From the NCBI GenBank assembly GCA_951406725.2, contig OX597832.1:46872001-46936000 (forward strand): a DNA stretch of 64,000 nt. The letters are read 5' to 3'. Shown here in pieces: positions 5,116 through 51,024 of the stretch. A program made the position numbers and the translations under genes. Source of the stretch: Octopus vulgaris. Taxonomy: Eukaryota. The stretch's first letter is position 1. Each line of letters opens with the position of its first letter. Under the pieces are notes generated by a model, which worked only from the letters and a program-made list of their open reading frames with translations, was not told the origin of the DNA and did no database searches.

Positions 5116-5282
5116 GGGAGAGTTACGAAAAAAAACAAAAGACGAAGACATGTGGTCAACAAAGAAAACAGATGTATTAGTATAACGCTCAGGAATAGAA
5201 AAAGTATTTTACGTTTCGAGCCTACGCTCTTCTACAGAAAGGGACACAGAAAAAACAAGGAGAGAAACAAGGAGAGAAAAAA
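5116..5282 (-). mobile_element. Short (TA)n-embedded element, family D, hammerhead-like motif at about 5206-5241 (-)
   Basis: Homologous to 33010-33216, 34972-35165 and 46515-46690; minus strand reads CUGUAGA-A-GAGC-GUAG-GCUC-GAA-ACGU-A. Confidence 0.75.
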
Positions 5283-6074
5283 TATATATATATACATGCA
5301 TACATACATATACATATACATATACATATAGACAGTAGTTATATGTGCACTAGTTGTCCCTCTTTTAACTACTCACTGCAAGTTAATAATAGGGACCTTA
5401 GAAGGAATTGAATTGCTTTGATGAAAATAGCAGGACACTACTAAAAGCACTTCGATTCCATTGCCTCAAACCTAATATAAATGGAATATACTTAAACAGC
5501 ACCATTAGTGACAGGGGTGGTCGGTTATAAATAGAAGACGAGTACAATGTAACAACAGTAGGACTAAAAAATTACTAAAGTGAAAGTAAGATGAATTAAT
5601 GTAATAAGGATACTTGATGAAAAGAAAAAAATTCTGCATGGATATATATATATATATACAAACACGTATACGCAAATGCATACGTACATACATACATGCA
5701 TACATACATACGTTCATACACACACACACACACATATATATATATATATATATATATATATATACACAAACAATAAGAAAATACCAACTGAAACAAGTTC
5801 TGCTGAAGGTAAAGATTTACATAAAGTAAAATCGATAAAAAATATTTTTTAAAAGCGTTAAGGCAGAAACAAATGGCTAAATTTCAAAAGGGACTCAGAA
5901 AGATGGTAAAACATTAACATACATATATATCTGTGTGTGTGTGTGTGTTTGTGTGTGTATAACCACCGTGGTTGTATACATATACATAGATACATACATA
6001 GATACATATATATATATATATATATATATATATATATATATATATATATATATATATACATATATATATAACTA

Positions 6075-6278
6075 CACAAGGACTGTTGGCGATTTTTTTT
6101 CCTGCTTCTTCCTTTCTTTTGGACTTTCCTATGCCTCCTGTTTCCGAAGAAGAGTTTAACTCGAAAAGTAAAACCACCACCCTTCGTTTCCTTCTCTGAG
6201 CATTTTATTGATACTTTGTATGTACCATGTCCTCGCGTTGATATTTCTTGTCATTTTTTCTCCGTTTTTTCATTAATC
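6075..6278 (+). mobile_element. Short (TA)n-embedded element, family E, hammerhead-like motif at 6140-6174
   Basis: GUUU-CCGAAGA-A-GAGU-UUA-ACUC-GAA-AAGU-A-AAAC; homologous to 14220-14422 and 46335-46472. Confidence 0.7.
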
Positions 6279-7387
6279 ATATATATATATATTCACAGTG
6301 GTTAATACTCATTAAATCCTAACGCCTTATCATTGCAATCAGTGAAAAAAAAAAAAAATTCTTGCCACTATATAACAATCAACTAGAAAGTTCTTTTAGA
6401 ATAAAAAGCAGAAAGCATAAATTTCAGGAACAGTTCATTATTTTAATTACGTTGAACAGACGTTTCTTAAGAAAGAAATATTTTTAATCACATAGTTACG
6501 TAATTAAGAAACGAAATACATTAAATGAGCTAAATCAGTTGAAAATCATGATCATCAGGGATATTTGGAGTCTATAATATTTTATTTTTTTATTTTTATA
6601 TATATACTTGATAGTGTTTGTTTTAGTATCCGTCAAAGAAATCTACTCACAATGAATGTCTGACATTATGAAACGTTTTTGATATTTTTCTCCTTCATGT
6701 TCTGAATATTCTGTTCCAAACAAGATATTTAACTTAGACATGACGTCACAAATTTTGGTGTATATAAGCGTATGTAAATTACCAAACAGACTGACAAGTG
6801 ATTTAAGATAAAAATGAAAACCACAAAGGTGTTTTATCTTTCAATAAATCTGTGTATAACCTCTAGTATTACTTGGAATACCTGCAATTGATTGGGATGT
6901 CTTGATAAAAAAACATCACGTCTTGCAATGTAACTACTTCTAATTGGCCAACAAATGTTCTAAGATATAACAATAAATGAAAAGAGACGTGTTTAAAGTT
7001 TCAAATATAATAATATGAGAACTGAATATTAAAGCGCCTCAAGAATATTACATAAAATATGTCTTAAAACATTACATTTATAGCATTATATAATATATAT
7101 ATATATATATATATATATATATATATACATGCATGCATATATGTGTGCAGACATACCTACACGCGCGCACACACATACATACAAACATACATACATACGT
7201 TGATGAAAAAGTGTACACCTATGTTGAACTATTGAGAAATTAAGCTTTTCAAAACCAGAAAGGAGACAGCTAATTCGAAAACAACAGATCCGGTCCGTCA
7301 CTGGAACTGTAAAAATCTGTGAAACTTTCCAGAGGTTTATCATTTAAATATGTCTGAGCATGTCTAGATATACATCTATGTGCATAC

Positions 7388-7522
7388 TACATACATACAT
7401 ACATACATACATACATACATACATACACACATACATACATACATACATACATACATACATACATACATACATACATACATACATACATACATACATACAT
7501 ACATACATACATATATACATAC
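7388..7522. repeat. (CATA)n microsatellite
   Basis: Direct run. Confidence 0.95.
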
Positions 7523-8555
7523 GTACACGTATAGTGATTTATTGAAACTGAGGAACATCACAAACTGTTATTCAAAGTTTCAAAATGTTGTATAAATCTT
7601 AGATAACTGACTTTCCAGTTTGAGTCACGACATCACTCAACATCCCGTTAATAATTATAAGATTTTGATCATATCAGTGAATATTAAATGCACTTCCTAA
7701 CCAGGCATAGCTAGATAGATAGACAGTCAGACAGACGGAGAGCAGACAGACAGACATACAGATAGATAGATAGATATATACATACATACATACATACATA
7801 CATACATACATACATACATACATACATAAATATATATATCGATAGAGATAAAGTGGGAGAGTTACATAGACAGATAAATATACGTATTCTTATTTATACA
7901 TATGTACATATTTATATATATATATATATATATGTGTATATGTATATATATATATATATATATATATATATACACATATATACAGAGAGATTTATACATA
8001 TACTTTTATATATACTCACACTTATATGGATATATATATAAAAATAGACGTATATATAGATAGATAAAATATAGATAGATAGAGAGAGAGAGAGAGAGAG
8101 AGAGATATGTGGGCGTGTTTGTGCGTGTGGGTGTGTGTAGGTGCAGTTAATCATATGCTTAAAAGGAACATTTTTAAAAAAAACACGTAAAAACGAAAAC
8201 CATAAACAACAATGTAAATAAATTACCAAACCACAAGACTTAGATAAAAAGATAAATTGATAAACAAACAGATAAACAAGCAAATAAAAATAAATAAATA
8301 GATAAATAAATAAATAAATAATGTGACTGTCACATCTGACATTTCTGCAGTAGGCTTGGCAGATCAGTTGAAATTGGAGGCCGCCTGAGATAGGAGTATT
8401 GTATTCTCCGAGTGTTTGTGACTTGTTGCAAACAGATATTATTATTATTATTATTATTATTATTATCATTTGGGCAACAGACACATATTCGAGAAGTTGT
8501 CATTTTAACGAGAGGATAATGAAGTAATAGTGAGCATACGAGCTTGCGCAAATGT

Positions 8556-9072
8556 TGAGAGAGAGAAACATGGAGCAAGCGAGAGAGAGGGAGAGAGAGA
8601 GAGAGAAGCATGGAGCGAGCGAGAGAGAGATAGAGAAACATGGAGCGAGCGAGCGAGAGAGAGAGAGAGAGAAGCAAGGAGCGAGCGAGAGAGAGAGAGA
8701 GAGAGAGAGAGAAAGAGAAGCATGGAGCGAGAGAGAGAGAGAGAGAGAGAGAGAGAGAGAGAGAGAGAAGCAAGGAGCGAGCGAGAGAGAGAGAGAGAGC
8801 ATGGAGCGAGCTAGAGAGAGAGAGAGAGAGAGAGAAGCATGGAGCGAGCGAGAGAGAGAGAGAGAGCATGGAGCGAGCGAGAGAGAGAGAGAGAGAGAGA
8901 GAGAAGCATGGAGCGAGGGAGAGAGAGAGAGAGAGAGAGAGAAGCATGGAGCGAGCGAGAGAGAGAGAAGCATGGAGTGAGCGAGAGAGAGAGAGAGAGA
9001 GAGAGAAGCATGGAGCGAGCGAGAGAGAGTGAGAGTGAGAGAGTCAGAGAGAGAGAGAGAGAGAGAGAAGCT
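8556..9072. repeat. Minisatellite: (GA)n spacer plus AGCATGGAGCGAGC unit
   Basis: More than 10 copies of (A)GCA(T/A)GGAGCGA separated by variable GA runs. Confidence 0.9.
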
Positions 9073-9210
9073 GTACATCAAAGGACATTGTTGTTCTCAT
9101 TCCATGGTCAGCGCATGTTTCTAAAACAGACACAAGGCTAAAAACTTTAAAGGTGAATAGATACAATGCGTGCTCAATATAGCAATAATTCTGAATAATA
9201 AACTACACGT

Positions 9211-49175: not shown

Positions 49176-49196
49176 ACATATACATTTAAACCATCT

Positions 49197-49670
49197 GTTT
49201 ACTGTTTTACTGTTTTACTTGTTTCAGTCATTTGACTGCGGCCATGCTGGAGCACCGCCTTTAGTCGAGCAAATCGACCGCGGGACTTATTCTAGTAAGC
49301 CCAGTACTTATTCTATCGGTCTCTTTGGCCGAACCGCTAAGTGACGGGGACGTAAACACACCAGCATCGGTTGTCAAGCAATGCTAGGAGGACAAACACA
49401 GACACACAAACACACACACACACATATATATATATATATATATATATATATATGTATATATATATATATATATATATATATATATATATATATATATGTA
49501 TATATATACGACAGGCTTCTTTCAGTTTCCGTCTACCAAATCCACTTACAAGGCATTGGTCGGCCCTGGGCTATAGCAGAAGACACTTGCCCAAGGTGCC
49601 ACGCAGTGGGACTGAACCCGGAACCATGTGGTTGGTTAGCAAGCTACTTACCACACAGTCACCTCTGCGC
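49197..49670 (-). mobile_element. SINE group C, full length
   Basis: Group C sequence with expanded internal (TA)n. Confidence 0.93.
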
Positions 49671-50406
49671 CATCATAGAATTTCTTTCCGTGATGTGCTT
49701 TGCTTTTTCCGGTTGCAGCCACCCATAGTATTCAGAACATAGCAGAGATGTCAGCTGAGACTTCAGCAAAATCATGTGATGTCCGTTGACTTTCAAGTAT
49801 TCAAACAGAACAGTAATAGCAGCAATCACACGCGTTTGGACTCAACGAATAATTCACACGCACACACGCTCACACACACACAGGCACCCAGATACACACA
49901 CAAGAAGGTTGATTAACAACTACATCGGATATAATAGCATGCAGTATGTGTTCTGGTTACTCTTTTGAGCAGCAGATTTGGGGGGAATTTCTTCTTCTCT
50001 TTTTGTTTTGCTTCTTTTCCGGAAGAAAATGGTCTTGTCTAGTCTCGTCTGGTTTGGTCTAGTTGGAGCGGCAAGGGCTCCGTCATCATGTTAAATAATG
50101 TTAAAATCACATCATACCAACGCCTTATACACACACGTATGTATAGGCACAACCATGGTTGTTTGGCAAGTAGTTCGCTTTACAACCACATTGTCCCAGG
50201 TTCAGTGCCACTGCATGGTACCTTGGGCGTTGGGCCGACCAGATCATTTGAAGTGGATTTTATACACGAAAACTGAAAGAAGCCTGTCATATATCTATAT
50301 ATATATATATATATATATATATATAACAAAGTGGAGTTGTAGGATATCGCACGAGTGGAATTATATACGAAAGAAGGTTTGAAAATGCAATTTAAAAGAT
50401 GTTTAT

Positions 50407-50451
50407 TTACTTTACCGGTTTCACTCTTTGGAAAAACATTGTCAAAAGTAA
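50407..50451 (-). ncRNA. Hammerhead motif, U3-A8 variant
   Basis: Minus strand: UUACUU-UUGACAA-...-GAA-ACCGGU-A-AAGUAA; stem II weakened. Confidence 0.6.
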
Positions 50452-50740
50452 CATGTAGAAGTTTGGTTGCGTTAATTATTGATTGTTACAAATTGCTACA
50501 TCACGTATATACAGTCTTTGGTAACAAGGACATGTTAAGGACATAAAAAAGTTCAACAAGTTCCTTAAAATATTGGGCATAAAAGATTACTACATAAAAA
50601 ATCTATCTTTTATGCCCAATATTTTAAGCAACTTGTTGAACTTTTTATGTCCTTAACATGTCTCTGTTACCAAAGACTGTATATATGTAATGTAGTAATT
50701 TGTAACAACCAATAATTAACGCAACCAAACACTCTACATG

Positions 50741-50785
50741 TTACTTTTGACAATCTTTTTCCAAAGAGTGAAACCGGTAAAGTAA
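50741..50785 (+). ncRNA. Hammerhead motif, U3-A8 variant
   Basis: UUACUU-UUGACAA-U-CUUUU-UCCA-AAGAG-U-GAA-ACCGGU-A-AAGUAA. Confidence 0.7.
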
Positions 50786-51024
50786 ATAAACATCTTTTAA
50801 ATTGCATTTTCAAACCTTCTTTCGTATATATGTATATATATATGTGTGTACGTGTGTGTATGTTTGTATGTGTGTGAATGTGTCTGTGCATTTTAGTACG
50901 TATAGAATAAGTACTAGGCTTAAAAAATAAGTCCTGCAGTCGAACTGATTGACTCAGAGGCGGTGGTCCAGCATGGTCGCAGTCAATCAAATGACTGAAA
51001 CCAGTAAAATAATAAAAGAATATA

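Follow-up and report, generated by a model that had tools for sequence, protein, structure and literature searches.

A 64,000-nucleotide stretch of the Octopus vulgaris genome (GCA_951406725.2, contig OX597832.1, positions 46,872,001 to 46,936,000 of the forward strand; below, the window) carries a dozen short hammerhead-like ribozyme motifs, each within a non-coding unit beside a microsatellite. A first-pass annotation made from the letters alone had taken these units for non-autonomous elements related to Penelope-like elements (PLEs) and retrozymes. Are they elements in their own right or the remains of something longer? We consider it very probable that the 12 units are 5'-truncated 3' ends, or solo pseudo-long terminal repeats (pLTRs), of six PLE families with open reading frames (ORFs), each with a minimal hammerhead, that they were likely placed in (TA)n by the families' own GIY-YIG endonuclease and reverse transcriptase (RT), and that, by prediction, a ribozyme would cut only when paired with another. 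The class proposed in the annotation is right only for a different sequence, the non-autonomous retrozyme-like family G at 37010-37552, outside the 12 listed units.

The six families continue into Penelope-like reading frames

The link to PLEs drawn in the annotation held. Longer copies of all six families, A to F, reach a GIY-YIG frame. RT sequence was found in longer copies of five of them, family B having GIY-YIG only. By motifs read by eye, C, D and E are of the Hydra type and A, B and F of the Neptune/Nematis type.

The architecture of an endonuclease-bearing (EN+) PLE, in which a single ORF upstream of the repeat holds RT with GIY-YIG at its C-terminus, is whole in family E and is also seen in C and A; D and F have GIY-YIG with the C-terminal part of the RT, and B has GIY-YIG in one locus. 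Family E forms head-to-tail 2.58-kb units with one hammerhead per unit, two of the three whole units in locus L289 having an unbroken frame of 717 amino acids (aa), and its protein had 1,151 relatives in a protein search. For family C, L197 holds Hydra-type frames of 136 and 729 aa with an inverted pLTR upstream. Walking upstream from the family A end leads through a C/CA-rich 3' untranslated region (UTR) to a GIY-YIG frame that carries a CX4CxxC linker, and beyond it to a 593-aa RT frame. The GIY-YIG frame lies immediately upstream of the family D end in L123, L131, L144 and L146, with the RT thumb in L134, and for family F it shares a locus with the hammerhead in L245 and L248, with the RT C-terminus in L236. 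Families C and E carry RWK-like and DKT motifs, a CxCX5C linker, CxxC and CxH around E/N; family D has CxxC/CKH, and the CxCX5C linker is absent in the copies read. A, B and F have a CX2-5CxxC linker before GIY-YIG; A has GxxF and DKG as well, DKG being seen in A only. The assignment is to Neptune and Nematis jointly.

A retrozyme would be a tandem non-coding unit without an ORF. The 12 listed units run on into ORFs and, judged on this sequence evidence, are therefore not retrozymes.

Several of the longer loci deserve separate description. L289 and L290 (C1:57207500-57224000) hold an intact-looking Hydra-type PLE, with 2.58-kb units in head-to-tail and inverted arrays, the 717-aa frame and a C4 hammerhead, which makes this family E element a candidate for an active one. 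In L197 and L198 a long insert rich in Asn and Lys precedes the endonuclease in the family C ORF, and the 3' UTR, of ~2 kb, is internally repeated; family D has a poly-Asn tract where C has this insert. Chimeric or stacked PLE ends were seen in L058/L208, L207, L020, L066 and L168, with an A 5' part and a B 3' part meeting near the cut site, or a pLTR fused to the body of another family. Recombination between A and B at the cut site, suggested by L058, was dropped: there were two matches genome-wide, one with each parent's N17.

Ends and TA flanks

A fixed 3' end together with 5' truncation, a feature of EN+ PLEs, is present here. All 30 top-scoring family A loci share one 3' endpoint, followed by TA, and have variable 5' ends; in family E, 30 loci show two 3' end clusters ~70 nt apart. 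Inverted and tandem forms comprise the E tandems, the inverted C pLTR and a pair of family F arms in the window with a 38-nt tail on one arm only. Inverted copies, one-sided tails and TA bias are known for PLEs (PMC8557442).

The preference for (TA)n described in the annotation was borne out, (TA)4 being found within 250 nt downstream of 14 of 20 sampled motifs compared with 24% of random points; it likewise lies downstream of 17 of 20 family A loci picked by pattern. The annotation saw no target-site duplication (TSD); TSDs are not readable within (TA)n (PMC8557442).

Hammerhead copies in the window

All 12 positions given in the annotation hold a type I hammerhead-like motif, and the palindromes were found again, in units of 140-320 bp adjoining (TA)n. 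They do not represent 12 separate copies, those at 50407(-) and 50741(+) being arms of one inverted insertion. A thirteenth hammerhead, at 37290(-), was absent from the earlier list. The copies are as follows.

5116..5281, minus strand: solo pLTR of family A (N7=A); CUGUAGA core at 5237, with the cut predicted after 5210; flanked on each side by (TA)n; 84% similar to the long copy L063
6071..6279, plus strand: decayed solo pLTR of family B'; CCGAAGA at 6144; stem III AAGU (relatives mostly ACGU); 73% similar to the B end
14211..14423, plus strand: solo pLTR of family B; CCGACGA at 14291; stem III decayed, ACUU; 92% similar to the GIY-YIG-linked copy L233
14832..14990, minus strand: solo pLTR of family C (Hydra-type); CUGAAGA at 14955; stem III ACAAUUGU; predicted cut after 14920
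15325..15400, plus strand: 3' remnant of family A, truncated downstream of the hammerhead, with no motif left
23318..23627, minus strand: solo pLTR of family D (Hydra-type); CUGAUGA at 23592; stem II arm of 53 nt; stem III ACAUAUGU; predicted cut after 23521
33010..33217, plus strand: solo pLTR of family A (N7=C); CUGUCGA at 33088; stem III ACGU; predicted cut after 33115
33246..33441, plus strand: stump of family E (Hydra-type), an inverted 3' end (33246-33333) and a forward pLTR piece (33343-33441); core decayed, CCGAAAA at 33352
34972..35162, minus strand: solo pLTR of family A (N7=A); core at 35093; stem III decayed, ACAU
37010..37552, minus strand: family G, 1.13 units; CUGACGA at 37290; stem III AUCAC-G-GUGAU; predicted cut after 37247
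46336..46473, plus strand: solo pLTR of family B, truncated immediately 5' of its core (46339), with a broken stem II
46513..46706, minus strand: solo pLTR of family A (N7=U), facing the B copy tail-to-tail over a single (TA)n; decayed core (GAAG/ACAU) at 46635
50326..50603, minus strand: arm of family F with the full 3' end and a ~38-nt tail; core UUGACAA (U3-A8) at 50445; stem III ACCGGU
50605..50830, plus strand: inverted arm of family F, belonging to the insertion of the preceding arm and tailless; core at 50747, with the cut predicted after 50779

Six of the 12 listed copies deviate from the intact form of their own family: in stem III at 6144 (AAGU), 14291 (ACUU) and 35093 (ACAU), in a broken stem II at 46339, in GAAG/ACAU at 46635 and in G8A at 33352. 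No long copy of B' itself was traced. Neighbouring PLE families across one (TA)n occur at 33010-33441 and 46336-46706 and also in L030, L036 and L163; repeated use of the same target is the likely cause.

Motif frequency was measured with a looser descriptor, which takes the core, stems I and II of at least 4 bp each and GAAA...UH and does not require the palindrome. The window gave 8 matches (5 palindromic) compared with 0.1 (0) in 20 local dinucleotide shuffles, and a genome sample of 40 x 10 kb (400 kb) taken at round coordinates gave 20 (14 palindromic) compared with 1.35 (0.1). Frequency is thus far above that of dinucleotide-shuffled sequence in both, the control that the annotation had proposed. 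A stricter, palindrome-demanding descriptor was unconvincing in the window, with 3 matches compared with 0.68 in shuffles and a shuffle maximum of 3, and another palindrome-demanding scan, of the genome, is informative on diversity alone. The looser descriptor corresponds to 1 motif per 8 kb in the window and 1 per 20 kb in the genome sample, so the window is richer in motifs than the genome average. The abundance and diversity claimed in the annotation are therefore supported, but its figure of roughly one motif per 5 kb gives way to these single-descriptor values. Extrapolation from the sampled 400 kb to the 2.8-Gb genome puts the number of intact-looking motifs in the order of ~1e5.

An Rfam scan of the window gave no hammerhead family among the matches listed (150 of 395), which were microsatellite hairpins. 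Outside the window there are many further hammerhead families (L313-L352 and other loci). Their stem II arms measure 12-100 nt, more U3-A8 cores are among them, and their palindromes include ACGCGU, ACAGCUGU, ACUGCAGU and ACACGUGU.

Ribozyme cores and stem III palindromes

The canonical core CUGANGA...GAAA...UH, with stems I and II and a palindromic stem III, is complete in families C, D and G. Most of the window cores depart from CUGANGA, with CUGUNGA in A, CCGANGA in B and E, and UUGACAA in F. The F core has a U3-A8 swap, a variant reported previously (PMC4209133); the change in A (U6) and that in B and E (C4) each affect a position that is conserved. In a genome pattern count of family A, U6 was present in 18,996 exact matches and other letters in 815, with 0 in controls; it occurs with all four N7 letters, in subfamilies whose flanks differ by ~20%. 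The family B pattern has 12,604 genome matches, with C4 in 46 of the 55 B copies compared, and that of family E has 3,833, with C4 in intact units. In place of G10.1-C11.1, an additional base lies 3' of stem II, or on each side, in several families. Mutations A6C and U4C lower activity in vitro, and U4C still supports viroid infectivity (PMC3088659). For an A6U hammerhead, searching titles and abstracts returned no paper on the hammerhead core; Lunse et al. 2017 and supplementary files, outside the scope of that search, may describe one.

The suggestion in the annotation that the palindromes could act as family-specific dimerisation keys was not supported. For counting, 23 of 42 motif groups were kept (those with a palindromic majority and 2+ copies, or singletons with 6+ nt, A and B being merged in one cluster), and among these there are at least 15 distinct palindromes. 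Both ACAUAUGU and ACAAUUGU recur in motif groups with unrelated stem I, and the groups that share them are cross-incompatible in stem I (0-3 bp). ACGU is common to families A and B, as are three pairs of stem I. A-to-B chimeras gave 2 matches in the genome. In family C the perfect palindrome ACAAUUGU has 57 exact matches and the imperfect ACAUUUGU has 326 (326/383), so this palindrome is mostly broken. A folding estimate suggests that no monomer stem III would be possible with the ACGU of A and B, and that 4 bp would be possible in G. Because the two molecules of a type I dimer pair in stem I as well, any key would presumably consist of stem I together with stem III.

Family G and its sister family G'

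The family G copy at 37010-37552(-) is 99% identical to a 480-bp unit. Arrays of this unit, with at least 12 units in one of them, lie on many chromosomes and are 97-100% identical. There is one type I hammerhead per unit, with 213 exact genome matches, and the longest stop-free frame within the 480-bp period is 70 aa. On this sequence evidence G is a non-autonomous, retrozyme-like family. Of 60 3' ends, 52 fall at two places, 29 of them at unit position 76-85 and the other 23 at 438; TA follows in 51 of the 52. The 5' ends are ragged, with 67 ends spread over 59 positions. Inverted arms combine the two end types, and in some inversions both arms contain more than one unit. The usual family 3' end and TA flank are absent from the window copy.

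A sister family, G', is 75% identical to G, with units of 476-481 bp, 496 matches to a shared 18-mer, the same two ends and a run of 31 units (C1:64640523-64654972; loci L478-L492). It has a shorter stem II, with compensatory changes in stem I and in a hairpin close to the 3' end. The folding of the units lies well below shuffles (z -5.7 and -6.4 for G/G'). Double changes are found at 14 of 115 predicted pairs in the G/G' alignment, a weak signal because there are two lineages and the alignment is by sequence only. Among the loci checked, 31 of G and 15 of G', none had a contiguous PLE ORF, PLE protein matches near some copies not being contiguous. Two candidate partner pairs of G 2.2 kb apart proved to be insertions of long interspersed nuclear elements (LINEs) into G copies, and related motifs led to G' and not to an ORF.

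The G loci are L403-L477, and the family is young. In L458 and L459 the two G copies are interrupted by the same LINE fragment (ORF1 with a zinc knuckle, and an RT frame in L458). The window copy, whose terminal overlap appears as the exact repeat 37010-37062/37490-37542, adjoins a mirror-image duplication of the end of a short interspersed nuclear element (SINE) around a long (TA)n (37553-37600 vs 37835-37882, 100%, within 37553-37900), which was possibly made during insertion. A 2,586-nt contig in X1 that closes on itself over the E unit, and an X5 contig that crosses the G junction, were left unused, as tandem DNA and RNA look alike.

A model for insertion and the alternatives

It would seem likely that the units arise as follows. 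The GIY-YIG endonuclease would nick the (TA)n target, and reverse transcription would begin within the element, from a fixed point ~90-270 nt downstream of the hammerhead, and end early in most cases, so that the ribozyme would be the last landmark in most stumps. Two hammerheads of a tandem transcript would join by way of stem I and the palindrome of stem III, releasing unit-length RNA, which may circularise. Solo stumps would mostly be inert and decaying. Family G, a protein-free 480-nt unit, likely uses the same route in trans, since its arrays share two TA-flanked 3' ends, ragged 5' ends and inversions.

A number of points weigh against this reading. The match of the family A RT frame to RVT_1 of Pfam (E 1.3e-6, 28.7 bits) is slightly below the cut-off of 29.6, and Pfam gave no match for the family A GIY-YIG frame or the family C frames. 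L233, which links the GIY-YIG frame to the B end, is one locus only, the ORF being reached in 1 of 25 family B loci. Similarity of 73-84% is what joins subfamilies A (N7=A), A (N7=U) and B' to the others, no long copy of their own having been traced, and the clades were assigned from motifs read by eye. Growth of TA after insertion may be an alternative to TA targeting. Catalysis in A, B and E may be weak or absent, because non-canonical cores dominate in these families, and no autonomous partner of G was found.

That the listed units are independent non-autonomous elements, retrozyme- or SINE-like and amplified as short units, is nevertheless very unlikely. Short copies do far outnumber long ones, a true non-autonomous family (G, G') is present in the same window and genome, and A (N7=U) and B' are not traced to an ORF of their own; but the ragged 5' ends extend into ORFs in all six families, and head-to-tail arrays were seen with full-length E units only and not with short units, unlike G. 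For family G itself it is unlikely that arrays grew locally as a satellite, by unequal crossover from single PLE-end insertions, instead of going in as multimers made from a circular or multimeric RNA. This route is discussed in a preprint (10.64898/2026.07.22.740005) and would suit the run of 31 G' units, but arrays on many chromosomes are 97-100% identical and share TA-flanked ends and PLE-type inversions, and their units fold well below shuffles.

The hammerhead fold could be kept for a non-catalytic role, such as RNA pairing or recognition by a PLE protein, or be cut in trans by a canonical-core partner, so that an element could do without cleavage by its own core; we regard this as possible but not the favoured explanation. 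The predominance of U6 in family A (18,996 vs 815), kept in subfamilies with all four N7 letters, C4 in 46 of the 55 B copies compared and in intact E units, the imperfect palindrome in most C matches and the weakening effect of A6C and U4C (PMC3088659) all point this way, as does the finding that Naiads thrive without canonical hammerheads (PMC8557442). On the other hand, stem II, the remaining core positions and the covariation of U3-A8 persist from family to family, which fits catalytic selection. U4C supports viroid infectivity, and slow cutting may suffice. It is decidedly improbable that stem III palindromes were selected as family-specific keys against cross-family cutting. Their diversity and the incompatible stem I of groups sharing ACAUAUGU or ACAAUUGU would favour such keys, but unrelated groups use the same palindromes again, A and B have ACGU and three pairs of stem I in common, the majority palindrome of C is broken, tandem copies can pair in cis without a key, and the two A-to-B chimeras neither show nor need one. 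A bolder combination, to which we give little weight, would have the crippled-looking hammerheads of the most prolific families (A6U in ~19,000 copies, U4C in B and intact E, the broken palindrome in most of C) kept for pairing or protein recognition, or cut in trans by canonical relatives sharing ACGU, while G and G' would be circular RNAs that an enzyme of Hydra or Neptune type inserts in multimeric form, their ends showing that PLE machinery mobilises animal retrozymes.

One genome here offers a comparison set of an intact tandem family (E), canonical cores (C and D), U6, C4 and U3-A8 families and a young retrozyme with PLE-type ends (G). The set is suited to asking whether hammerhead cutting is needed for PLE spread, and family G to asking whether PLE enzymes put in retrozyme arrays as complete arrays.

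Other repeats in the window

A dispersed family of ~200 bp, which from its look we take to be SINE-like, is found at 1265-1458, 9201-9417, 15840-16047, 41405-41585 and 55325-55590. A second, of ~220 bp, lies at 4614-4831, 13866-14091, 35506-35737, 44775-45190 (in tandem at 44779-45149) and 57370-57607. A third, of ~400 bp with internal (TA)n, has many copies (23799-24198, 42703-43112, 43635-44055, 49198-49671 and 61305-61709). There is also a 43-bp inverted repeat around a microsatellite (47569-47611/47813-47855) and a 100-N assembly gap within a repeat copy (43265-43364).

Comparison with known systems

A search for hammerhead, Penelope and octopus together found no description in the literature covered; Lunse et al. 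2017 and supplementary files, outside that scope, may hold one. The closest counterparts are the minimal hammerhead ribozymes (min-HHRs) of metazoan PLEs (Cervera and De la Pena 2014, PMC4209133), described with a short stem I, an extra nucleotide at 9/10.1, a palindromic stem III and thousands of mostly solo motifs ascribed to truncated PLEs. For these, dimer cleavage was predicted and paired hammerheads cutting tandem transcripts were proposed. The octopus motifs are alike in all of these features of sequence, in the U3-A8 variant and in having several families per genome, while they differ in number (~1e5 motifs by extrapolation), in the U6 and C4 cores that dominate large families and in the extra stem II bases. 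Small PLE-associated hammerheads cleave as dimers (Lunse et al. 2017, via PMC6765202), as is predicted here. The role of PLE hammerheads is stated to be unclear (PMC8557442, PMC7761336).

PLEs of the Hydra clade have RWK, DKT, CxCX5C, CxxC and CxH motifs and target (TA)n (Craig et al. 2021, PMC8557442). Families C, D and E resemble them in RWK-like, DKT, CxCX5C (C and E), CxxC and CxH motifs, in the hammerhead, in (TA)n and, for E, in the size of 2.58 kb. Family C however reaches ~5 kb because of its repetitive 3' UTR, the D copies are without the CxCX5C linker and E has C4 where Hydra hammerheads are called canonical. A, B and F share with Neptune/Nematis PLEs (PMC8557442) the linker before GIY-YIG and the microsatellite bias, and A also GxxF and DKG, but they have long CA-rich 3' UTRs, and A has the U6 core.

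Like the metazoan non-LTR retrozymes (Cervera and De la Pena 2020, PMC7229834; Li et al. 2026, 10.64898/2026.07.22.740005), G and G' are non-coding, low in GC, tandem and self-paired, with one type I hammerhead per unit. The PLE origin of retrozymes has been argued from pLTR homology and co-occurrence (10.64898/2026.07.22.740005). For G no pLTR partner was found, and the link to PLEs lies instead in insertion signatures, namely two TA-flanked ends, 5' truncation and inversion, which would add a different line of support. PLE ends with minimal palindromic hammerheads and (TA)n targeting are already published, and the octopus units are a dense example of them.

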